Source of the DNA: an uncultured Gemmatimonadales bacterium
GTDB lineage: Bacteria > Gemmatimonadota > Gemmatimonadetes > Gemmatimonadales > Gemmatimonadaceae
Assembly: GCA_963701965.1 (NCBI GenBank)
Contig: OY969695.1
Span: forward strand, 1,888,001-1,952,000
DNA length: 64,000 bases
Direction of reading: 5' to 3'
A model generated the notes under the pieces. The model was given only the letters and a program-made list of their open reading frames with translations, ran no database searches and had not been told where the DNA came from. Made by a program: the position numbers and the translations under genes. Below are positions 18,716-43,351 of this stretch, piece after piece; the stretch's first letter is position 1; each line of letters opens with the position of its first letter.

Positions 18716-21439
18716 ATGCCACATCCCAATTCTTTTGCCAGCCGCTCGACGCTGAGCGTCGGCGGACGCACGTACACGATCTACCGTCTCGACCGTCTCG
18801 ACGGCACCGGCGCCAGTCGTCTCCCGTTCAGCCTTCGGATCCTGTTGGAGAACTTGCTGCGCAACGAGGACGGCGCGTTCGTCAAGCGCGATGACATCGC
18901 CGCCCTCGCGGCGTGGGATGTCAAGGCGCGGCAGGAGCGCGAGATCGCCTTTCGGCCCAGCCGGGTCCTCTTGCAGGACTTCACGGGCGTCCCGGCCGTC
19001 GTCGACCTGGCGGCAATGCGCGATGCGATCGTGGCGCTGGGTGGCGCGGCGACGCGCATCAATCCGCTGCAGCCCGTCGACCTCGTGATCGACCATTCGG
19101 TGCAGGTCAATGAATACGGCTCGGAGGCCGCGTTCCTGATCAACGCCGGTCTGGAATACGAGCGGAACCGCGAACGGTACGCGTTTCTGCGATGGGGACA
19201 GACGGGGTTCGAGAACTTTCGCGTCGTGCCGCCGGAAACCGGCATCTGCCATCAGGTCAACCTGGAGTATCTGTCGCAGGTGGCGTTTACCCGCGGCGAC
19301 GAGGTGTATCCCGACTCGCTCGTCGGAACGGACTCCCACACCACGATGGTCAACGGATTGGGCGTACTCGGCTGGGGCGTGGGCGGCATCGAGGCCGAGG
19401 CGGCCATGCTGGGACAGCCGCTGTCGATGCTCGTCCCCGAGGTCGTGGGCTTCGAGATGCATGGACAGCTGCCGCCGGGCGCCACGGCCACGGATCTGGT
19501 GCTGACCGTCACCCAGCTGCTCCGCCAGAAGAAAGTCGTCGGGAAGTTCGTCGAGTTCTACGGCGCCGGCCTCTCCTCGCTGTCGCTGGCCGACCGCGCG
19601 ACGATCGCCAACATGGCCCCGGAGTACGGCGCCACCATGGGATTCTTCCCCGTGGACAACGAGACGCTCGCCTATCTGCGCCTGTCCGGGCGCGACGAGC
19701 ACCACGTGAAACTGGTCGAGGCGTACTGCAAGGAGCAGGGTCTCTTCCGGACCGACCAGACGCCCGCACCCGTCTTCACCGACAGCCTGACGCTGGATCT
19801 GCGCACGGTGGAGCCGAGCCTGGCCGGTCCGAAGCGCCCGCAGGACCGCGTCCCGCTGTCCAAGTCGAAGGCCATGTTTCGCGAGGCCCTCGCCGCCGAT
19901 CACTCGTCGCGCGCGAAGACCGTCGCCGCCAGCACGACCAAGGCCGTGCTGCGCGAGGATGACGAGGGCGGCGCCCAACCCCAGCATCAAGCGCCGGGCT
20001 ACGCGTGTGCGTACAACGGGAGCGAATTCGCGCTGCGCGACGGCTCGGTCGTCATCGCGGCGATCACGAGCTGCACCAACACGTCGAATCCGTCGGTCAT
20101 GCTCGCCGCCGGCATGCTCGCCCAAAACGCCGTCGCGGCGGGATTGAGCAGCAAGCCATGGGTCAAGACCAGCTTGGCGCCGGGATCCAAAGTCGTCACC
20201 GACTACTTCGCGAAAGCGGGCGTGATGGAGTCGCTGCGAAAGCTGGGGTTCAACCTTGTGGGCTACGGCTGCACCACGTGCATTGGCAATTCGGGGCCGC
20301 TCCCCCAGCCGATCGCCGACGTCGTGGACGAGCACAACCTCGTCGTCGCCGCCGTGCTGTCGGGCAACCGCAACTTCGAGGGGCGCGTCAATCCGCTGAC
20401 GCGATTCAACTACCTGGCTTCACCGCCGTTGGTGGTGGCCTACGCGTTGGCGGGCCGCATGGACATCGACTTCGCCAACGAGCCCCTCGGCGTGGGCGCG
20501 GGCGGCCCGGTGTTCCTGCGCGACATCTGGCCGGCGCCAAAGGATGTGGAGGCCGAGATCCTGCGGTCGGTCAAGGCGGAGATGTTTCGCGCCCAGTACG
20601 CCGACGTCTTCACCGGCGACGACCGCTGGCAGGCGTTGGACGTGCCGACCGGCGAGCGTTATGCGTGGGACGCCGCATCCACGTACGTCAAGCACCCGCC
20701 GTACTTCGAGGGTATGACGACGACTCCGCCGGGTATCACCCCGATCACGGGCGCGCGCGTGCTGGCCTTGCTCGGCGACTCGATCACGACGGATCACATC
20801 TCGCCCGCCGGCAATATTCAGGCGGCCAGTCCGGCCGGCCGGTGGCTGCTGGAGCACGGCGTGCCCAAGGCCGATTTCAATTCCTACGGCGCGCGGCGCG
20901 GCAATCACGAGGTGATGGTGCGCGGCACGTTCGCCAATATCCGGCTCAAAAACGAGTTGGTGGCCGGCGTGGAGGGCGGCTGGACGCGCATGGCGCCCGG
21001 CGCGGAGCAGATCGCCATCTACGATGCGGCGGTCGCGTTTCAGGCCAAGAAGACGCCGCTCGTGATCATCGCCGGGAAAGAGTACGGTACGGGCTCATCA
21101 CGCGACTGGGCCGCGAAGGGCACGCTACTCCTCGGCGTGCGGGCCGTCATCGCCGAGTCGTTCGAGCGGATCCACCGGTCGAATCTCGTCGGCATGGGTG
21201 TGTTGCCGCTGGAATTCGCCGATGGCGCTTCGCGCCAATCGCTGGGACTCACCGGGTTCGAGACCTATGCCATCCAAGGCTTGGACGAGAGCTTGAGACC
21301 AAAGGCCCGGCTCACGGTGACGGCGGGAGACAAGAAGTTCGCCGTCACCGTGCGCATCGACACCCCAGAGGAACTCCAGTACTACCGCCACGGCGGAATC
21401 CTGCCGTACGTACTCCGTCAGCTCGTACGCTCTAGCTAG
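18716..21439 (+). CDS. acnA: aconitate hydratase A
   Basis: LQDFTGVP, DHSVQV, GTDSHT, AAITSCTNTSNP, GYGCTTCIGNSG, GSSRDWAAKG; ATG 18716. Confidence 0.98.
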   Translation: MPHPNSFASRSTLSVGGRTYTIYRLDRLDGTGASRLPFSLRILLENLLRNEDGAFVKRDDIAALAAWDVKARQEREIAFRPSRVLLQDFTGVPAVVDLAAMRDAIVALGGAATRINPLQPVDLVIDHSVQVNEYGSEAAFLINAGLEYERNRERYAFLRWGQTGFENFRVVPPETGICHQVNLEYLSQVAFTRGDEVYPDSLVGTDSHTTMVNGLGVLGWGVGGIEAEAAMLGQPLSMLVPEVVGFEMHGQLPPGATATDLVLTVTQLLRQKKVVGKFVEFYGAGLSSLSLADRATIANMAPEYGATMGFFPVDNETLAYLRLSGRDEHHVKLVEAYCKEQGLFRTDQTPAPVFTDSLTLDLRTVEPSLAGPKRPQDRVPLSKSKAMFREALAADHSSRAKTVAASTTKAVLREDDEGGAQPQHQAPGYACAYNGSEFALRDGSVVIAAITSCTNTSNPSVMLAAGMLAQNAVAAGLSSKPWVKTSLAPGSKVVTDYFAKAGVMESLRKLGFNLVGYGCTTCIGNSGPLPQPIADVVDEHNLVVAAVLSGNRNFEGRVNPLTRFNYLASPPLVVAYALAGRMDIDFANEPLGVGAGGPVFLRDIWPAPKDVEAEILRSVKAEMFRAQYADVFTGDDRWQALDVPTGERYAWDAASTYVKHPPYFEGMTTTPPGITPITGARVLALLGDSITTDHISPAGNIQAASPAGRWLLEHGVPKADFNSYGARRGNHEVMVRGTFANIRLKNELVAGVEGGWTRMAPGAEQIAIYDAAVAFQAKKTPLVIIAGKEYGTGSSRDWAAKGTLLLGVRAVIAESFERIHRSNLVGMGVLPLEFADGASRQSLGLTGFETYAIQGLDESLRPKARLTVTAGDKKFAVTVRIDTPEELQYYRHGGILPYVLRQLVRSS

Positions 21440-22914
21440 TTCGCAATAGCTAACACCGCGCTCCCGGCCGGGAGAGGGATGTTCGCCGTGCCCTTGGTAA
21501 TGGGCACGGCGGCCTGCGGGGTCATGTCGTTCGCGGCGTCCGACCGGTACGGATAGACGCCCGTGCCGGGCAGGCCGGTGACGCCGAGCACTTTGTTGCT
21601 CTTCGTCGTGTTGGTCATGAGGATGGCAACGGTCTTGGCGTCGGGACTGACGAACGCCAACAGGTCCACGCGCGCCGCGCAGGGATCCTGCGCGCCAACT
21701 CCGACCTGCAGGTCGGGATCCGTGGTAGTCATAGGAACCACTTTCCAGCCGGGTCGTACCGTCGTCCACAGTTGCTTGAGCGCGTAGAAGCGCTTGGAGT
21801 AGATGGGGGTTTGGTCGCCGCCCAGCAGGCTGCCCCCATCCGGTGACGTACTGGATTGCGCGAAGCCGTTCCACCACGCCCAGTAGTTGAACGGCAGCGT
21901 GGCCAGGTGCGCGGCCAGCGCGCGGTAGGTGTCGATCATCCAATCCGTCTCGGTCGTCCCGTTGGGCGCCGAGAACTCCGTCATCCACGCGTCCTTGGGA
22001 AAGGCCTGCATGCCGGCGGCGTTCTGCGTGATGACGCATTCGCCGTAGGCGTGCAGTGCGTACGCGCCGACGGCGCTGTTGAGCGCGGTCGAGGCGCCGA
22101 GGGCCGGGTAGCCACTGCCGCCGAAATAGCCGACGGCGCGCGTCGTGGGATCTTCCCAGATCGGGCCATTGAACGTGCCCGTTTCCGGTCCAAAGAGCTT
22201 GACGGCCGAGAGACCGTTGGCGTCGAACGCGGCCCGCGTGGCTTGGATCACGCGCTGCCATTGGGCCGTGGAGTAGATCGCCGTGCTGTACACGTCGAGG
22301 TGCTCCGGCTCGTTCTGAATGCTGATGGCCACCGGCAGCGGCGCGCCGTTCGCTTTGAGCGCCTGCAGAATCTTCGTGAGATAGGCGATGTACGCCGTCT
22401 CATCGGTTGCGATGAGACCACCGCCGACCAGCGATCCGTTGGTCTTCCACACGGCCGGTGGGCTCCAGACGCCGCCAATGTACGTCGAGAGACCGTAGGA
22501 CTGGGCTTGCTGAATGGACTGCACCAGCACGTTGAGCGCGCCGGGATCGAGCGTCATGTTGGCGAGCGTGGTGCCGCTGGCGTAGAGCTCCGGGCGGAAC
22601 TGCACGCGGAAGAACGTGATCCCGCTGCCGTAGAGTGCGGCCGCGACCTGGCTGCGGCCGTAGAGACCACCGTTGCCGGCGGGGTACATGCCCCAGCCTT
22701 TGATGGTCTGCGCGGGCGTACCGAGGGCGGCGCTCGCCGTTGGCGGCGCGCCCGGGGGAGTCGGATTCGAGGGCGCGCTCGGCGAGGATTGTGGCGGGGC
22801 CGCTTTCGCCGGCGCCGTTGTGAGATCCTGGCCACTGGTACACGCGTTCAGTACGGTGAGTACGATCACGAGCGCGCGCGCCACGGGCGCGCGCCGCAGC
22901 ACGCGGATACGCAT
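21436..22914 (-). CDS. GH30-like glycoside hydrolase, lipoprotein
   Basis: Lipobox LNA-C, Pro-rich linker, QTIKGWG, WSPPAVWK, ISIQNEP (acid/base), WMTE (nucleophile), C-terminal beta-sandwich; GGAGG 6 nt before ATG 22914. Confidence 0.8.
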   Translation of the reverse strand: MRIRVLRRAPVARALVIVLTVLNACTSGQDLTTAPAKAAPPQSSPSAPSNPTPPGAPPTASAALGTPAQTIKGWGMYPAGNGGLYGRSQVAAALYGSGITFFRVQFRPELYASGTTLANMTLDPGALNVLVQSIQQAQSYGLSTYIGGVWSPPAVWKTNGSLVGGGLIATDETAYIAYLTKILQALKANGAPLPVAISIQNEPEHLDVYSTAIYSTAQWQRVIQATRAAFDANGLSAVKLFGPETGTFNGPIWEDPTTRAVGYFGGSGYPALGASTALNSAVGAYALHAYGECVITQNAAGMQAFPKDAWMTEFSAPNGTTETDWMIDTYRALAAHLATLPFNYWAWWNGFAQSSTSPDGGSLLGGDQTPIYSKRFYALKQLWTTVRPGWKVVPMTTTDPDLQVGVGAQDPCAARVDLLAFVSPDAKTVAILMTNTTKSNKVLGVTGLPGTGVYPYRSDAANDMTPQAAVPITKGTANIPLPAGSAVLAIAN

Positions 22915-22929
22915 GCGGAGCCTCCACCT

Positions 22930-23035
22930 GACCGTTCGGCGGCCGGACTGGCATGGCGCGCCGAACGAGCCGGCCCGCTTTAGCCTCCAGAGCTTTGCGT
23001 CACTGGCTTTCGCCAGTTTTGCCATTATCCCGGCC
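22930..23035 (-). ncRNA. c-di-GMP-I (GEMM) riboswitch
   Basis: Minus strand GGCAAA-ACTGGC-GAAA-GCCAGT-GACGCAAAGC-TCTGGAGG-CTAAAG...CCATG-CCAG-TCCGG-CCGCCGA: perfect 6-bp GAAA-tetraloop stem, GACGCAAAGC junction, CTAA/ATG receptor, paired P2. Confidence 0.88.
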
Positions 23036-23192
23036 CGACGGAACTGCCGAGCCCGCTATCAAGTTAGGGAATCCGGCTGAGGGGTCGAGGCGTCGGTCGC
23101 GGTGTCCGGCAAAACCGAGTTAGGGCGTTATTCCAGCGTCTGCCAGGGGAACGGCGGCTGTCACGCTCCCGCGCCGACTGCTTTATTGCCGG

Positions 23193-24830
23193 TTAGGGCG
23201 ACGGGGTCGCCGCCGGCAGCGATGTGGCGTCAGGCGACGATGCGGTATCACTTGCGGCGGTGAAGACGGCGGTCACCGTGTCTTTGGTCACCACCTCGAC
23301 GTTGAGCTGCGCCGGCTCGAACGCATCGCCCGCGCTTTCCAGGGACACGTAGTGATTCCCGGACTCGATCCTGATGACGAGCGGCGTGAATCCCAGCGTA
23401 TGCCCGTCGATGCGGACCTTCGCGGCGCCGCCCTTGGCGATGACGCGAATGTACCCCGGGCCGCCGTCGCCCTGCGCATTCTCCCGACCGCCGAGGCTGG
23501 GGTCGAGCGCGACGGGGCGCCGGTGGGCAGGCTCGCTGCCGCCGCCGTGCGCGCTGAGATCGAACGTCGTATCGACGGACATCACCGAGTCCGGGGGAGC
23601 CGGCGAGCTGGCCGGGATGACCGGGACCGGCCTGCGGACCGGGATGGTGAGGCGGGGCGCGGCGCCAATGCCGGCGCGCGCCGACGGGCCGCTCAGGCTC
23701 AGGATGGCGACGGTCGCTATCGCGGCCCCGATCGCCGCCGCGGCGATAGCCGCGCCGATCCACCGGCGCCGGGACGGCGCGGGCGCTTCGGGCACGATCC
23801 GGAGGGACGTCTGCGTCAGGCCGACCGGCCGTCGACCCGACAAGGCATCGACGAACGCCGAGACCGAGGGGAACCGGTCATCGGCGCGCTTGGCCATGGC
23901 CCGGTGGATGGCCCCATCGACATAGGGCTCGAGCCCTCCGCGCAGCGCCGAGGCGTTCGGCACATTGGCCGACAGATGCAGTTTGAGCAGATCCTGCACG
24001 CGCACCGTCTCGAACGGCCGGTGCCCGGTGAGCATCTCGAACGCCATGACGCCTAGCGCGTATTGATCGGCGCGGGGATCGATGTCCTCGCCCCGCCACT
24101 GCTCGGGTGACATGTAACCAGGGGACCCGATGATGCCGGTGCCCGATCCGACCAGACCGTCGCCCTGTCCCAGGGCTTTGGCGATACCGAAGTCGGACAC
24201 CATGGCGTGCCCGCTGTCTCCGATCAGGACGTTGGCGGGCTTGATGTCCCGGTGGATCACGCCCTGGCTGTGGGCGTAGTCGAGGGCGCGGCCGACGTCG
24301 CGGAGGATGTCGAGGGCGTGCTCGATGCCGAGCACGTTGTGCCCATCCAGCATGTCTTCGAGGGTCCCGCCGCGGACGAGTCGCATCGTATAGAACGCGA
24401 CGGTGTTCCGCTGGCCGACGGCGAAGATGGGAACGATGTGCGGGTGGTCGAGTCGCGCGGCCAGCTTGGCCTCGCGCTCGAACCGGCCCCACGCCTCGGG
24501 CGACAGCACGGGATCGAGCGCCAGCACCTTGAGCGCGACTTCGCGGTCGAGCGCGGTCTCGTGGGCCCGGAAGACGATCCCCATCCCACCGCGACCGAGG
24601 AGCTCGAGGAGCCGGTACGACTCGCCGACCGACTCCTGCAGGCGGAGCCGGATGCGGTCGGCATGCTCGGCGGACGTCTCGCCGGTGATCATCGCACCGC
24701 AGCGGGCGCACGACGTGCTCGACGGGATGAGCGTCGCGCCACAGCGCGCACACAAGCCGGCCATGCCGGCTGGTGTGGTCACCGCAGCAAACGAGGGCTG
24801 GCGGCGCGGGTTGCTCTGACTGCCGGTCAC
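23193..24830 (-). CDS. Hanks-type Ser/Thr kinase with N-terminal zinc ribbon, TM and PEGA-like domain
   Basis: CARC...CARC; LGRGGMG, VALK, HRDIKPAN, DFG, YMSPE; TM; IDGHTLGFTPL. Start uncertain (GTG 24830 or ATG 24764). Confidence 0.93.
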   Translation of the reverse strand: MTGSQSNPRRQPSFAAVTTPAGMAGLCARCGATLIPSSTSCARCGAMITGETSAEHADRIRLRLQESVGESYRLLELLGRGGMGIVFRAHETALDREVALKVLALDPVLSPEAWGRFEREAKLAARLDHPHIVPIFAVGQRNTVAFYTMRLVRGGTLEDMLDGHNVLGIEHALDILRDVGRALDYAHSQGVIHRDIKPANVLIGDSGHAMVSDFGIAKALGQGDGLVGSGTGIIGSPGYMSPEQWRGEDIDPRADQYALGVMAFEMLTGHRPFETVRVQDLLKLHLSANVPNASALRGGLEPYVDGAIHRAMAKRADDRFPSVSAFVDALSGRRPVGLTQTSLRIVPEAPAPSRRRWIGAAIAAAAIGAAIATVAILSLSGPSARAGIGAAPRLTIPVRRPVPVIPASSPAPPDSVMSVDTTFDLSAHGGGSEPAHRRPVALDPSLGGRENAQGDGGPGYIRVIAKGGAAKVRIDGHTLGFTPLVIRIESGNHYVSLESAGDAFEPAQLNVEVVTKDTVTAVFTAASDTASSPDATSLPAATPSP

Positions 24831-24989: not shown

Positions 24990-26561
24990 GTGCGCGCCAC
25001 GCCCCGTGAGGTCCTGGGCCGCCTCTTCGAGGCGGCCGTCGCCGGGGCGATACCGGAACGCGCCACCCGGGACGCGGTCGCGGCGCTCGCCCTGCCCGCC
25101 GGGGCGGTGCACATCATTGGATTGGGCAAGGCCGCGCAGGGCATGGCCGCCGGAGCCGTCGCCGCCCTCGCCGCGGTCGGGCGCGAGCCCGCCGGGGGCG
25201 TGATCGTCACCCCCGCCGCCGACCCGCCATCCCCCCACCGCGCCATCAGGCTCGTGGTCGGAGACCACCCCGTCCCGGGCGCTGGCTCACTGGCCGCCGC
25301 GGACGCGATCGCTGACGCGATCGCCCGCGTCGGGCCACAAGACACGGTGGTGGCGCTCATCTCCGGCGGTGGCTCCAGCCTCGCGGCTGCGCCGCTCGCT
25401 GGTATACCCAACTTCGGTGTCCGCAGCCCCGGCACACTCAATCGCGGGACATCCGACATCGGGACATCCGACATCGGGACATCCGACATCGGGACATCCG
25501 ACATTGGGACATCCGACATCGGGACATCCGACATCGGGACATCCGACATCGGGACATCCAGCCTCGGCACACCCAACATTGAGACACCCAACCGCGGGAC
25601 ACCCAGCCGCGGCACATCCAACTTCGCCCCCGCCGAGTTCTCGGGTATACCCAACTTCGGCCCCGCCGAGCTCTCGGCCCTGTACGTGACGTTGCTGGGA
25701 TCGGGGGCCGACATTGCGACGATGAACGCGGTACGCAAACGCTTCACGCGATGGAGCGCAGGTCGCGTAGCGACCGCGCTCCGAGGCCGACCGATCCATT
25801 GCTTGGTCGTCTCCGACGTGCTCGGAGACGATCTCCCGTCGATCAGTTCGGGCCCATGTGTCCCCGATCCCCTGACGGCTCGCGACGTGATCGCGATGCT
25901 GCGGCGCGGCAACCTCTGGGACGAATTAGGCGACTGCGTTCGCGCGCATCTGGCAGCCGTCGCGCGCGGCGAGGCACCGGAGACGCCGAAGCCGGGCGAC
26001 CCGGCATTCGACCGGGTGACCACGCAGGTGATCGTCAGTAACCGGCACGCCGTCGAAGCGGCCGCGGCCTGTGCGCGCGCCGCCGGCGTCGACGAGGTGA
26101 CGATCATGCCAACGCCCCTCGAAGGCGAGGCGTCGATCGCGGGCGTGCGCCTGGCCAGCGAATTGATCGCGCGCCGCCGCCGCGCCCGAGGACCCCACGT
26201 GTCGCGCTGCATCCTGTGGGGTGGCGAGACCACGGTGACCCTCGGCGCGGCCCCGGGAATGGGTGGCAGAAATCAGGAGCTGGCGCTGGCCGCCGCCCGC
26301 TCACTCGCCGATGCCGGCGAGGCGGCGAGCGGCATCACACTCCTGGCGGCCGGCACGGACGGACGCGACGGCCCGACGGACGCCGCGGGCGCCATCGTCG
26401 ACGGCCTCACCTGGGGCGCGGCACGCGACGCGGGACGTGACCCGGATGCGGATCTGGCCGGTCACGATGCGTACCGCAGCCTCGACGCGGCGGGCGCGCT
26501 CCTGCGCTCGGGCTACACGGGGACGAACGTCATGGACGTCGTCTTCGGCCTGATCCCTTAA
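24990..26561 (+). CDS. glycerate 2-kinase (DUF4147+MOFRL) with internal repeat insertion
   Basis: GLGKAA, HPVP, LISGGGSSL, SDVLGDD, GGETTV, GGRNQEL, GTDGRDG, TGTNVMD. Confidence 0.92.
   Translation: MRATPREVLGRLFEAAVAGAIPERATRDAVAALALPAGAVHIIGLGKAAQGMAAGAVAALAAVGREPAGGVIVTPAADPPSPHRAIRLVVGDHPVPGAGSLAAADAIADAIARVGPQDTVVALISGGGSSLAAAPLAGIPNFGVRSPGTLNRGTSDIGTSDIGTSDIGTSDIGTSDIGTSDIGTSDIGTSSLGTPNIETPNRGTPSRGTSNFAPAEFSGIPNFGPAELSALYVTLLGSGADIATMNAVRKRFTRWSAGRVATALRGRPIHCLVVSDVLGDDLPSISSGPCVPDPLTARDVIAMLRRGNLWDELGDCVRAHLAAVARGEAPETPKPGDPAFDRVTTQVIVSNRHAVEAAAACARAAGVDEVTIMPTPLEGEASIAGVRLASELIARRRRARGPHVSRCILWGGETTVTLGAAPGMGGRNQELALAAARSLADAGEAASGITLLAAGTDGRDGPTDAAGAIVDGLTWGAARDAGRDPDADLAGHDAYRSLDAAGALLRSGYTGTNVMDVVFGLIP
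25401..25660 (+). repeat. in-frame 15-bp tandem repeat array bounded by 17-bp direct repeats
   Basis: Seven near-identical GGGACATCCGACATC units (25446-25550) inside 15 degenerate units from 25401; GGTATACCCAACTTCGG at 25401 and 25644. Confidence 0.95.
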
Positions 26562-41481: not shown

Positions 41482-42593
41482 CAGGCCGCCCTGGTCGGCG
41501 CGTTTTGGAACGCTTGCACGATGGATTGGTACGCGGCCTTCGGGTTGAGCGACACATCGAGCGGCATGACGCGGGCCGCTTGCCCGTCGGCGCGGGGCGC
41601 GTGTTGCGAGAGCCAGGTGTACTTGTCGCTCAAGCCCCACGTCTCCACGACGATCACGTTCGGATTCTTGAGCGCGACGTCGAGATACGTGCTGTAGGCG
41701 TTGGCGATCGCCTGATCGCGTGCCGTAGGATCGGCGGGCAGCTTGGCGTCCGTCACGTCCAGTTCCGTAATCAGGATCTTGAGCCCCATGTCGGACACGT
41801 CTTTGAAGAAGCTCGAGATCGCCCGCGCGTTCATCTTGCCCATGTTGTCGCCGTACAAGTGCGCCTGAATGCCGAACGCCTGCACGGGCACGTTCTGGCT
41901 CTTCATTTTGTGCAGCAAGTTGAGCATCGCCGTCCGGCGCGCATCGACGCCCGGAAAATCGTATTCGATGCCGTAGTCGTTGTAGACGAGCAGCGCCGAC
42001 GGGTCGGCCGCACGGGCGGTGTTGAAGGCGAGCGGGATGTAATCCGGCCCGATGAGCGTGAGCCAGGGCGAGTTCCGAAGGCCGTCCGGATTCCGGTCAT
42101 CGGGATTGACCGCCTCGTTGAGCACATCCCACGAATGCAGTTTGCCGGCGTAATGTCCGCACACGTTCTGGATGTGCTGGGTCAGGACCTGACGGGCGTT
42201 CTCCGGCGTGACGTACGACTTGAACCATCCCGGAATCGACTGCCAAAACGCCAACGTGTGGCCGCGCATCTTGAGGCCGTTCGACTCGGCGAACTTGAGC
42301 AGGGCGTCGCCCGGGCCGAAGTTGTAGCGGTCGGGCGATGGGCGCAGCGTGCCCCACTTGAGCTCGGACTCCGGCGTGAGAATGGCGCACTCGCGTACGA
42401 AGGCCTGTTCGTAGGCTGCATCGTTGAGCATCTCGCCGCGCGCGGCTGATCCAAACAGGATGCCTTTGGACGCGGCCACGCCTTTGAGCGTCGGTGCCTG
42501 TAGCAGCGACGACAATGCGGGAAGCCGCCGGCTCACCGCCGCCGTGCCCGCGGCCACGGCCGCCGTTCGCACGAAAGTCCGTCGATCGATCAT
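41481..42593 (-). CDS. GH10 endo-glycanase with Tat signal
   Basis: RRTFV Tat motif; ELKW, RGHTL, WDVLNE (acid/base), YNDY, GIQAH, ITELDV (nucleophile), WGLSD. Confidence 0.92.
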   Translation of the reverse strand: MIDRRTFVRTAAVAAGTAAVSRRLPALSSLLQAPTLKGVAASKGILFGSAARGEMLNDAAYEQAFVRECAILTPESELKWGTLRPSPDRYNFGPGDALLKFAESNGLKMRGHTLAFWQSIPGWFKSYVTPENARQVLTQHIQNVCGHYAGKLHSWDVLNEAVNPDDRNPDGLRNSPWLTLIGPDYIPLAFNTARAADPSALLVYNDYGIEYDFPGVDARRTAMLNLLHKMKSQNVPVQAFGIQAHLYGDNMGKMNARAISSFFKDVSDMGLKILITELDVTDAKLPADPTARDQAIANAYSTYLDVALKNPNVIVVETWGLSDKYTWLSQHAPRADGQAARVMPLDVSLNPKAAYQSIVQAFQNAPTRAA

Positions 42594-43351
42594 GCCTTCC
42601 TCCTGATCCATTCAGAGACAAAGAGCCCGAGCACCGGCCACGGCTCGATGAGATAGCGCCGGGTCAAGCGCCGGGGCTCGGCGGCGAGGCGAAACGCCCA
42701 TTCCAAGGACCACCGCCCGGCCCAGCGCGGTGGCGTCGGCACGGCGCCGGCCACGTAATCCAACGCGGCACCGGCGAGGAGGGTCGCGTTGGCCGTGAGA
42801 TGCCGGCGGTGCGCATGGACCCACAGTTCCTGTCGCGGCATGCCCAATCCCACCATGAGGACGTGGGGCGCGAACCGGGCGATCTCATCGAGGATCGCCG
42901 CGCTGTCCGCGCTGTCGGGCCGTTGGTCGAAATACCCGTGCCGGGCGGCGATCGACAACGTCGGATGGCGCGCCCGGAGCACATCGCAGGCGCGGTCGGC
43001 GACGCCCGGCCGGCCGCCGAGGTAGAACACGCGCCAGCCGGCCTGCGCCGCGGCGGCCATCAGCGCCGGCACCCAGTCGACGTAGGTCACCCGATGGGCG
43101 CGTTGGAGCGGCGCCCCTAGGGCCCGGCCCAGCGGCACGAGTGGCATCCCATCGACGTGGATCACGTCGGCGCTGTCGTAGAACGCGCGCAGCTGGGCAT
43201 CGCGGCGGACCAGCGACACGCTGTTCATGTTGTGGTTCGCGATCACGATGCGGGTGCCCGCGTCGACCGCGCCGGCGATCGCCCGGTTGAGATCGTCGCG
43301 GGTGTAGGCCCCCACGCGGATCCCGAGGAAAGCGTACGGTTCGGGATTCAT
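42590..43351 (-). CDS. WecB/TagA/CpsF family glycosyltransferase
   Basis: VDGMP, FYLGG, VGLGMPRQELW, LEWAFRLAAEPRRLTRRY. Confidence 0.93.
   Translation of the reverse strand: MNPEPYAFLGIRVGAYTRDDLNRAIAGAVDAGTRIVIANHNMNSVSLVRRDAQLRAFYDSADVIHVDGMPLVPLGRALGAPLQRAHRVTYVDWVPALMAAAAQAGWRVFYLGGRPGVADRACDVLRARHPTLSIAARHGYFDQRPDSADSAAILDEIARFAPHVLMVGLGMPRQELWVHAHRRHLTANATLLAGAALDYVAGAVPTPPRWAGRWSLEWAFRLAAEPRRLTRRYLIEPWPVLGLFVSEWIRRKA

Follow-up and report, generated by a model that had tools for sequence, protein, structure and literature searches.

A c-di-GMP-I riboswitch upstream of a GH30-fold glycoside hydrolase gene in a Gemmatimonadaceae genome: a likely translational OFF switch acting through the 5' leader

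In the 64-kb stretch of Gemmatimonadaceae DNA analysed here (the window) we find a c-di-GMP-I aptamer in the leader of a gene for a GH30-fold glycoside hydrolase (P0001), and this leader is likely to act as a translational OFF switch that works via its 5' portion. Bound c-di-GMP would stabilise helix P1; P1, thus extended, would pair an upstream anti-Shine-Dalgarno (anti-SD) strand to the site of ribosome binding (RBS) and turn translation off. Without ligand, the anti-SD strand would be held by a competing 5' hairpin, which would fold first and so make the switch partly kinetic; the RBS would be left more open, i.e. the enzyme would be made at low c-di-GMP. Ligand binding, switch direction and kinetic component are what we infer from the models and comparisons below.

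Gemmatimonadota, which abound in soil, have been little studied, and the leader and its relatives offer a first readable c-di-GMP output for them: a gene set, a direction that is predicted and a short platform of about 150 nt; already known are the aptamer class and its tie to surface and carbohydrate genes. To our knowledge, the translational mechanism has been resolved for few class I riboswitches, and the 42 natural versions of this one layout, divergent in sequence, make good study material.

The aptamer and the gene start

The RNA is confirmed as a canonical aptamer of the c-di-GMP-I class. The first-pass annotation had named this class and suggested an Rfam covariance-model search as a check, which bears it out: the match to RF01051 (64.0 bits, gathering score 35; E = 3.3e-10) covers the model end to end (positions 1-87 of 87), and no other Rfam match in the window reaches gathering score. 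All the GEMM landmarks read earlier from the letters could be located, namely GGCAAA (23023-23018, minus strand), a 6-bp stem with a GAAA loop (23017-23002, minus strand), GACGCAAAGC, a CUAA...AUG receptor and the 3' end, which reads GCCGAA; the GAAA is a GNRA tetraloop on P2 and its receptor lies in P3. Among 8 GH30 leaders, a small and related set, four pairs of the aptamer helices have changed on both sides (5 of 500 shuffles scored as high; slid controls gave 0). The c-di-GMP contacts of class I aptamers are G20, A47 and C92 (excerpt of PMC4744006), and the equivalents of all three are present (Table 1). In the constrained fold P1 closes the junction with G14-C93 and five distal pairs, with one G-G mismatch that adjoins the pocket and occurs in 4 of 74 related elements. 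Our comparison set was drawn from 22 genomes and comprises 42 non-redundant short-leader elements with G20; P1 positions are paired in 32-40 of them, the distal ones with several pair types.

Table 1. Features of the riboswitch leader and the GH30-fold gene (positions within the window)
Feature	Position	Strand	Basis or remark
c-di-GMP-I (GEMM-I) aptamer, RF01051	22935..23033	-	Rfam covariance model; covariation in its helices among 8 GH30 leaders
G20 equivalent, c-di-GMP-type pocket base	23023	-	Rfam alignment; role of G20 from excerpt of PMC6140456
A47 equivalent	22996	-	Rfam alignment; contact role from excerpt of PMC4744006
C92 equivalent	22939	-	Rfam alignment; C in 74/74 related short-leader elements
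P1 3' strand	22930..22938	-	22938 pairs with 23029, 22934-22930 with 23031-23035; constrained fold
5' leader hairpin of 8 bp with a 6-nt loop	23032..23053	-	would hold anti-SD and distal P1 strands without ligand
Predicted anti-Shine-Dalgarno strand	23037..23043	-	partner strand 22928-22922 in the P1-closed fold
Shine-Dalgarno GGAGG, 6 nt before ATG	22921..22925	-	sequence; invariant or nearly so in orthologues
Candidate -10 hexamer TAACTT	23061..23066	-	TAA[C/T]TT here in 5/5 aligned orthologous leaders; inferred
GH30-fold glycoside hydrolase P0001, 492 aa	21436..22914	-	signal peptide, probable lipidated Cys25, Pro/Ser-rich linker
Glu202 (NEP), predicted acid/base	22309..22311	-	invariant in 73/73; aligned with GH30 enzymes
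Glu313 (WMTE), predicted nucleophile	21976..21978	-	invariant in 73/73; aligned with GH30 enzymes

The aptamer and the GH30 gene lie on the same strand, with 20 nt between the aptamer and the ATG (at 22914) and with GGAGG starting 9 nt past the aptamer end, where about 10 nt had been estimated. Scanning 21300-23400 gave no terminator-like site, in agreement with the earlier claim that none stands between aptamer and RBS, and no sigma70-like site by consensus; from the candidate -10 hexamer we infer a transcription start near 23056. An ORF of 529 aa starting at 23025, inside the aptamer, was rejected; the orthologues begin at the ATG after GGAGG. A shared upstream motif, GGCAGGATCGC, was considered as a promoter box and set aside in favour of a reading as the anti-P1 strand.

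The predicted expression platform

Whole leaders were folded with constraints, unconstrained folding having misfolded the aptamer, and the fold models hold no tertiary contacts. The 5' hairpin of the window RNA has an energy of -15.6 kcal/mol (z -2.1; 6 of 200 shuffles are equally stable) and is retained in orthologues, where substitutions preserve pairing; in the modelled full-length ligand-free ensemble it makes up only 5%, and another long-range helix dominates. In the P1-closed fold the pair 23040-22925 reaches a modelled probability of 0.9, and the openness of the Shine-Dalgarno sequence (SD) falls from 0.41 to 0.13 in the model with 8-10 kcal/mol of binding energy. The duplex between leader and tail is not significant for this RNA by itself (30% of shuffles are as good), nor is capture of C13/G14 by its hairpin above that of shuffles (0.44 vs 0.70). 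Taken alone, the modelled window RNA argues only weakly for an OFF platform.

Across the relatives, the leader is complementary to its own ribosome-binding region. Summed over the 42 elements, the leader:tail duplex amounts to -697 kcal/mol compared to -582 ± 19 kcal/mol for permuted partners, with 0 of 10,000 permutations as low; the combined z is -6.0 against dinucleotide shuffles (-0.1 and +1.2 for two stretches further upstream) and -8.3 for the leader hairpin, values which overstate the effect, as the 42 elements include orthologues. CCTC occurs in 23 of the 42 proximal leaders (versus 8 and 3). The hairpin engages both P1-strand and anti-SD bases in 41 of 42 elements and captures C13/G14 above shuffle level in 33. 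In models of 40 elements, the P1-closed form has a less open SD than the hairpin form in 30 cases and a more open one in 2. The elements G002 L082 and G000 C1:3807089 show the largest swing in the models. At equilibrium, P1 closure lowers SD openness by at least 0.1 in only 11/40 and raises it in 1/40, and in 11/40 relatives, including the direct orthologue in genome G001, the SD is already closed without ligand; such a switch would therefore need kinetic control. That control acts at translation, as the first-pass annotation had put forward, is supported by the missing terminator and by a predicted RBS helix that is conserved in structure. That annotation had proposed neither a switch direction nor a platform; OFF via the 5' leader was added in the present analysis.

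The same modelling leaves some room for a reading in which c-di-GMP is bound and the output is something other than simple occlusion of the RBS: a site mostly closed in both states, Rho-dependent termination, an effect on RNA stability, or an ON switch. The relatives closed without ligand fit it, as does a window RNA that is only 0.41 open when free, and the Vc2 riboswitch acts on RNA stability too (excerpt of 10.1101/617340), while the direction of one class I riboswitch does not allow that of another to be predicted (excerpt of PMC6366702). We nevertheless regard this reading as rather unlikely, for across leaders unrelated in sequence two helices that exclude each other are retained, and the aptamer-to-start distance of 17-35 nt leaves little space for another platform. 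The ON variant in particular is unlikely because P1 closure opens the SD in only 1-2 of 40 models.

The GH30-fold protein, its surroundings and the riboswitch set

The Pfam search returned no family for P0001 (and a weak PF14587 match for its paralogue), and we assigned it to GH30 from PDB, fold and atlas searches. Its structure model (pLDDT 90.4) is a (beta/alpha)8 barrel with a side beta-domain; 30 of the 30 Foldseek matches listed are GH30 enzymes or GH30-like, and the atlas search places GH30 neighbours at 0.95-0.97. P0001 falls into a clade of its own comprising 64 proteins with 44-70% identity, one of them named Gemmatimonadaceae; within GH30 this clade is uncharacterised. P0001 has an atypical lipobox (LNAC, failing the strict lipobox pattern; orthologues have LSAC or VAC) and a cysteine occupies the Cys25 column in 37 of 51 close homologues, so that the label 'lipoprotein' rests on the homologues. 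Tethering to the membrane is likely from these sequences, and the protein may reside at the surface. The surface lipoprotein GH30 glycanase described earlier thus stands as regards the fold, by structure and both glutamates (each present in 73/73 aligned homologues), while its lipoprotein part is carried by homologues and its surface part is presumed.

The pairing of aptamer and GH30 gene is conserved in close relatives, a point that the first-pass annotation had listed as a check: it occurs in 10/10 close loci and 0/9 distant ones. A metagenome scan gave 79 loci, of which the single close one (L146) has the aptamer; the aptamer pattern, which is weaker than the covariance model, was absent from the 1200 nt upstream of the other 78 loci, some of them short. 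A scan of genome contigs gave 4 loci, 1 of them close.

A Wzx/Wzy polysaccharide cluster was found at about 36.6-51.7 kb of the window, consistent with the cluster reported previously as 13-29 kb away, and it has been suggested that the GH30 enzyme remodels this exopolysaccharide. In such a reading, which can stand alongside the OFF switch and departs from it in substrate only, the enzyme would cut the cell's own Wzx/Wzy polysaccharide and low c-di-GMP would release it for dispersal. The dispersal logic fits the OFF direction, the cluster lies on the same contig as the GH30 gene (19-28 kb away) in G001, and two other aptamers of the genome, which has more than one polysaccharide cluster, are located inside the second one. 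The nearby cluster also carries a GH10. That family has xylanases among its members, and the GH30 structures nearest to P0001 are xylanases too. A precedent is the C. difficile zmpI leader, where a class I riboswitch represses the gene (excerpt of PMC6366702). However, the GH30 gene lies outside the cluster, separated by about 10 unrelated genes, in a housekeeping block, where its neighbours in every congener compared are aconitase and a Ser/Thr kinase; the cluster already has its own hydrolase in the GH10; a GH30 paralogue that carries the same riboswitch sits ~145 kb (G000) or ~187 kb (G003) from the cluster; and related riboswitches precede many different proteins, glycan-active and other. 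Together with the multiple polysaccharide clusters, this leaves remodelling of the nearby exopolysaccharide unsupported, and we consider the reading improbable.

Regarding the ligand of the proposed OFF switch, the host genome contains 7 c-di-GMP-I aptamers and 13 GGDEF and 9 EAL matches, canonical enzymes among them. The GH30 paralogue is divergently arranged to a GGDEF-EAL gene. The Hypr position is Asp in 10 of the 12 GGDEF domains read and 2 are degenerate, giving 0/12 with the Hypr serine, which, along with G20 and C92, upholds the earlier preference for c-di-GMP over cGAMP. It is very improbable that the RNA has 3',3'-cGAMP as its ligand or is a decayed copy that no longer binds: the P1 mismatch beside the pocket points that way, as do A20 variants and cyclases with the Hypr signature elsewhere in the order, but the three contact bases are intact, 36/36 elements in the 6 genomes of the genus are G20, the host's GGDEF domains speak against it, the aptamer is conserved in all orthologues, and wild-type G20 Vc2 binds cGAMP at only 10 uM compared to picomolar c-di-GMP (excerpt of PMC6140456).

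The aptamer is one of the seven in its genome and part of an order-wide set. Most genes downstream of related aptamers encode lipoproteins in which Ig, lectin, lyase or hydrolase domains occur, i.e. Ig-stalk, glycan-binding or glycan-cleaving proteins, and a lipobox is present in 71 of 110 ORFs downstream of aptamers (55 of 837 background ORFs). As the set stands mostly before glycan-active lipoproteins, the GH30 enzyme is likely made at low c-di-GMP as part of a surface glycan-processing kit. Only tentatively would we extend this to a c-di-GMP regulon of the Gemmatimonadales, where class I riboswitches, dozens of them and all with one compact platform (a 5' hairpin locking anti-SD and P1 strand versus an SD-covering P1), shut off surface-tethered glycan-active lipoproteins at high c-di-GMP, with the GH30 as a new subfamily that possibly strips the own matrix for dispersal. 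Searching the literature for Gemmatimonad names with riboswitch or Hypr terms gave nothing on the topic by title or abstract start (the supplements of PMC5473149 and PMC1950547, outside this scope, may list Gemmatimonadetes hits); neither a lineage-wide regulon and platform nor a Gemmatimonadota host and GH30 partner for a class I riboswitch was found in the literature searched.

Comparison with known systems

The best sequence and fold matches of P0001 are AcXbh30A (GH30_10, PDB 7n6h/7n6o) and Erwinia XynA (GH30_8, PDB 1nof), with sequence E values of 1e-16 and 1.2e-14, Foldseek E 7e-29 and TM 0.68/0.77. P0001 shares with them the barrel, the side beta-domain and the NEP and WMTE glutamates, but is only 22-23% identical to these closest solved enzymes, both xylanases, and differs in its lipoprotein-type N-terminus and the lack of a Pfam match. 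Where XynA reads WWYIRRS, P0001 reads WWNGFAQ, without the arginine after the WW motif, which we take to be the glucuronic-acid-binding arginine of GH30_8; arginine is likewise absent among the common residues at 349-354 of the P0001 homologue alignment. In GH30_8 glucuronoxylanases a conserved arginine binds glucuronic acid (excerpt of PMC8347883).

Among riboswitches, the Geobacter GEMM-Ib c-AMP-GMP elements have the same scaffold as the window aptamer but carry A at position 20, according to the excerpted sources, whereas here the base is G and the genome is without a Hypr-type cyclase among the GGDEF domains read. GEMM elements are known before chitinases, carbohydrate-binding proteins, lipoproteins and subtilases (PMC1950547, Table 2, in excerpt). 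The class I riboswitches of C. difficile (Cd1, zmpI leader) are OFF switches, one of which controls a secreted enzyme that releases surface proteins (excerpt of PMC6366702); the OFF direction, predicted here, is shared, but as excerpted they work by transcription termination, while the window leader has no terminator-like site. With Vibrio cholerae Vc2 (tfoY leader), the type example of RF01051, the window aptamer shares the P1-P2-P3 junction, the GAAA tetraloop with its receptor, and G20/A47/C92. For Vc2, too, translational repression switched by P1 has been proposed (excerpt of 10.1101/617340), there with an anti-RBS downstream of the aptamer and a distant RBS, whereas in the window RNA the predicted anti-SD strand lies upstream, the SD follows directly after P1, and a 5' hairpin would compete.

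Aptamer, probable ligand and encoded protein

The Rfam model RF01051 matches the window over its whole length at 23033-22935 (-) with 64.0 bits (E 3.3e-10; gathering threshold 35), and this is the sole Rfam match at gathering level within the window. By every feature that could be tested the RNA is a c-di-GMP-I member, with all landmarks named in the first-pass annotation; the equivalents of G20, A47 and C92, the three bases described as contacting c-di-GMP in Vc2 (PMC6140456, PMC4744006), are listed in the table. The aptamer ends close to the GGAGG ribosome-binding site (SD), much as the annotation had it (about 10 nt, without terminator), and a scan of 21300-23400 found neither a terminator-like nor a sigma70-like site. 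A hexamer kept in 5/5 orthologues gives a putative transcription start position.

Coordinates of the aptamer, its predicted expression platform and further loci
Feature	Position	Strand	Remark
G20 equivalent	23023	-	Rfam alignment
A47 equivalent	22996	-	Rfam alignment
C92 equivalent	22939	-	Rfam alignment
Shine-Dalgarno GGAGG	22925-22921	-	9 nt past aptamer end
GH30 frame, 492 aa	ATG at 22914, ends 21436	-	head to head with aconitase
Distal P1 pairs	23031-23035 with 22934-22930	-	constrained fold
Predicted anti-SD helix	23037-23043 with 22928-22922	-	covers GGAG of the SD; constrained fold
Alternative leader hairpin, 8 bp	23053-23032	-	z -2.1; uses P1 and anti-SD strands
GH10, Tat-like N-terminus	41484-42611	-	inside Wzx/Wzy cluster; in 5/5 congeners
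A20/tandem loci	L105 G039:C3:4761-5163; L106 G039:C36:1983-2385		further loci: L049, L054, L056, L112, L114, L118, L122, L129
Hypr MASE1-GGDEF loci	L259:574-1977 (G039); L268-L278		

The host genome (one contig, 5.1 Mb, 67% G+C) contains seven RF01051 aptamers along with 13 GGDEF and nine EAL matches. Hypr cGAMP synthases are described as having Ser at a diagnostic GGDEF-domain position (PMC6456294); among the 12 host GGDEF domains read, this position is Asp in 10 and degenerate in two, and Ser in none. Because of this and of G20, the likely ligand is c-di-GMP, the choice over cAMP-GMP that the annotation had made.

The encoded protein (P0001) has no Pfam family match, but profile searches (3.8e-26) and PDB sequence searches (AcXbh30A, E 1e-16; XynA, 1.2e-14) retrieve GH30 enzymes, and its atlas neighbours are GH30. 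Its structure model (pLDDT 90.4; residues 1-48 unstructured) resembles the GH30 structure 7n6h (E 7e-29, TM 0.68/0.77, 22% identity), and the predicted catalytic residues E202 and E313 are invariant in 73/73 homologues. Where the GH30_8 enzyme XynA reads WWYIRRS, whose arginine we take to be the marker of that subfamily, P0001 reads WWNGFAQ, and the marker appears to be absent. Such an arginine is described for GH30_8 glucuronoxylanases (PMC8347883). The lipobox of the proposed surface lipoprotein glycanase, LNAC, is atypical and outside the strict pattern, but 37 of 51 close homologues share its Cys, and membrane tethering is likely. Several homologues additionally contain an Ig domain (PF02368). 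A homologue with 63% identity is labelled Gemmatimonadaceae, as is the sole close genome locus.

Predicted expression platform and A20 elements

For the platform we used 127 of 149 RF01051 matches (the match of genome G012 was excluded, as were 20 with low scores and one lacking upstream sequence), namely 76 with G20 and a start codon no more than 35 nt away, 20 with G20 and a longer leader, and 31 without G20. Enough sequence was present for 74 of the 76, and 42 (22 genomes) remained after leaders or tails more than 60% alike were dropped; four start codons were assigned by hand, two (L066, L072) from an SD-like run.

When P1, the closing helix, is constrained to be closed (23029-22938), the window RNA folds into one continuous helix through the SD region. 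Across the 42 leaders, pairing with the own SD region sums to -697 kcal/mol, compared to -582 +/- 19 with those of others (0 of 10,000 permutations as low, conserved P1 core excluded), the own SD beating the non-cognate mean in 30. Against dinucleotide shuffles the combined z is -6.0 (-0.1 and +1.2 in two windows farther upstream) and that of the leader hairpin -8.3, although these combined values overstate the effect since the set contains orthologues; individually, nine of 42 leaders reach p <= 0.05. The hairpin takes in P1-strand and anti-SD bases in 41/42 and pairs C13/G14 above shuffles in 33/42. CCTC occurs in 23 proximal leaders (8 and 3 in control windows), and the complement of aptamer bases 12-15 in 21 (5 and 10). 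Five P1 positions are paired in 40, 38, 36, 32 and 33 of 42, distally by several pair types.

c-di-GMP is described as sitting at the P1-P2-P3 junction, with P1 forming on ligand binding (PMC4744006, PMC9262584). In 30 of 40 modelled elements, a closed P1 leaves the SD less open than the hairpin does, and in two the reverse holds. As the ligand-formed P1 is the state with the less open SD, we predict translational OFF: without ligand, the 5' hairpin would hold the P1 and anti-SD strands, while binding would close P1 and extend the helix so that the anti-SD strand pairs with the SD. In equilibrium models the SD is already closed without ligand in 11/40 elements and closes by at least 0.1 in only 11/40, so the model requires that the hairpin forms first and then lasts; a kinetic mechanism has likewise been argued for Vc2 (PMC9262584).

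The window RNA alone would make a weak case for a switch. Its leader:SD pairing is equalled by 30% of shuffles, its hairpin captures C13/G14 no more than shuffles do (0.44 vs 0.70) and accounts for 5% of the free ensemble in the model. That ensemble is dominated by another long-range helix, which leaves the SD 0.41 open; openness falls to 0.13 if P1 is given 8-10 kcal/mol.

In 15 of the 74 leaders (10 genomes, including L031, L041-L044, L096, L101 and L107, but not the window), GGCAGGATCGC ends 12-21 nt 5' of the aptamer, its 3' end able to pair with aptamer bases 12-15; it may alternatively be a promoter or protein site.

The 31 elements without G20 are A20-type and candidate cGAMP ON switches. 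In one subtype, a terminator-like hairpin follows and overlaps the aptamer 3' end, and genome G039 carries two triple-tandem arrays upstream of Ig-repeat lipoproteins. The Hypr signature (GGDEF together with Ser nine residues past Asn) is found in a MASE1-GGDEF protein of 11/61 genomes, all within the order's two other families; five contain A20 riboswitches and six (family f3) have no RF01051 match. The same query found none in this genus. This suggests 3',3'-cGAMP signalling.

Conservation, predicted regulon and polysaccharide clusters

Of 61 genomes from the order, 44 contain an RF01051 match above the cut-off (counting the host and G012, the latter used in no other result). Close GH30 homologues are present in 5/5 congeners, with weak partial matches only in the other genomes. 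The riboswitch-GH30 pair, whose conservation the annotation had proposed to check, is kept in 10/10 close loci (five orthologues, four congener paralogues and the host's own paralogue, which lies divergent to a GGDEF-EAL gene) and in 0/9 distant ones.

Two of the host's aptamers precede GH30s; the other five lie ahead of a lone receiver domain, a secreted protein without assignment and three lipoproteins, one with Ig repeats, one whose orthologue has an Ig domain and one that is di-haem peroxidase-like. Order-wide, 71 of 110 aptamer-downstream ORFs show the lipobox pattern, compared to 55 of 837 background ORFs of the host. Among 43 G20 short-leader proteins (a set without the host's own proteins and without most orthologues, many sequences ending at the locus edge) we found Big_2 in 21, ricin-B, GH39, lyase or beta-helix in 14, subtilases in three, di-haem peroxidases in two, signalling proteins in two and no match in six. 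A carbohydrate and surface theme is already classic for GEMM genes (PMC1950547, Table 2). With Ig-rich proteins predicted to be OFF at high c-di-GMP, stalked enzymes of a foraging state would fit better than adhesins. A lone receiver gene follows a c-di-GMP-I aptamer in 5/6 genus genomes (L002, L071, L075, L079, L081), a possible link to two-component signalling; in genome G057, aptamers lie upstream of type IV pilin-like genes (L110, with an N-methyl motif match, and L134). The Ig-lyase gene (L059:1207-4258), the di-haem peroxidase-like gene (L060:1187-2358) and a GGDEF-EAL gene (G000:C1:2811141-2811630) appear to be split by frameshifts, probably assembly errors; the first two are whole in orthologues.

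A polysaccharide cluster near the GH30 is real (36.6-51.7 kb: Wza, Wzc, sugar transferase, flippase, glycosyltransferases, Wzy-like), but that the GH30 remodels its EPS, as first proposed, is improbable. The cluster carries its own GH10, the better candidate for processing this polysaccharide; the GH30 sits in an aconitase-kinase block common to congeners, and in four of these the cluster lies on other contigs. Among the congeners, only in G001 do both share a contig, 19-28 kb apart, which we read as ordinary synteny. A second polysaccharide cluster (~C1:3.80-3.85 Mb) holds two aptamers, a closer riboswitch-polysaccharide link than that of the GH30. Downstream of these (L059, G000:C1:3807089 and 3811091) are two lipoproteins, the first with Ig repeats and, probably, a C-terminal lyase domain. 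Within the window, a MOFRL/DUF4147 glycerate-kinase-like gene (24990-26561, +) contains in-frame five-residue repeats (TSDIG, ~25400-25700) and aligns over a shorter length in congeners.

Comparison with known riboswitches

We found no paper on c-di-GMP-I riboswitches in Gemmatimonadota, although supplementary tables may list them; platform and regulon are well-supported as predicted additions to a known aptamer class. For Vc1, the riboswitch output is described as unexplained (PMC4744006). Class I riboswitches of C. difficile are reported to act through terminators (PMC6366702), whereas no terminator-like site was found in 21300-23400; and while a downstream anti-RBS and RNA stability are described for Vc2 (10.1101/617340), the predicted anti-SD of the window lies 5' of the aptamer.
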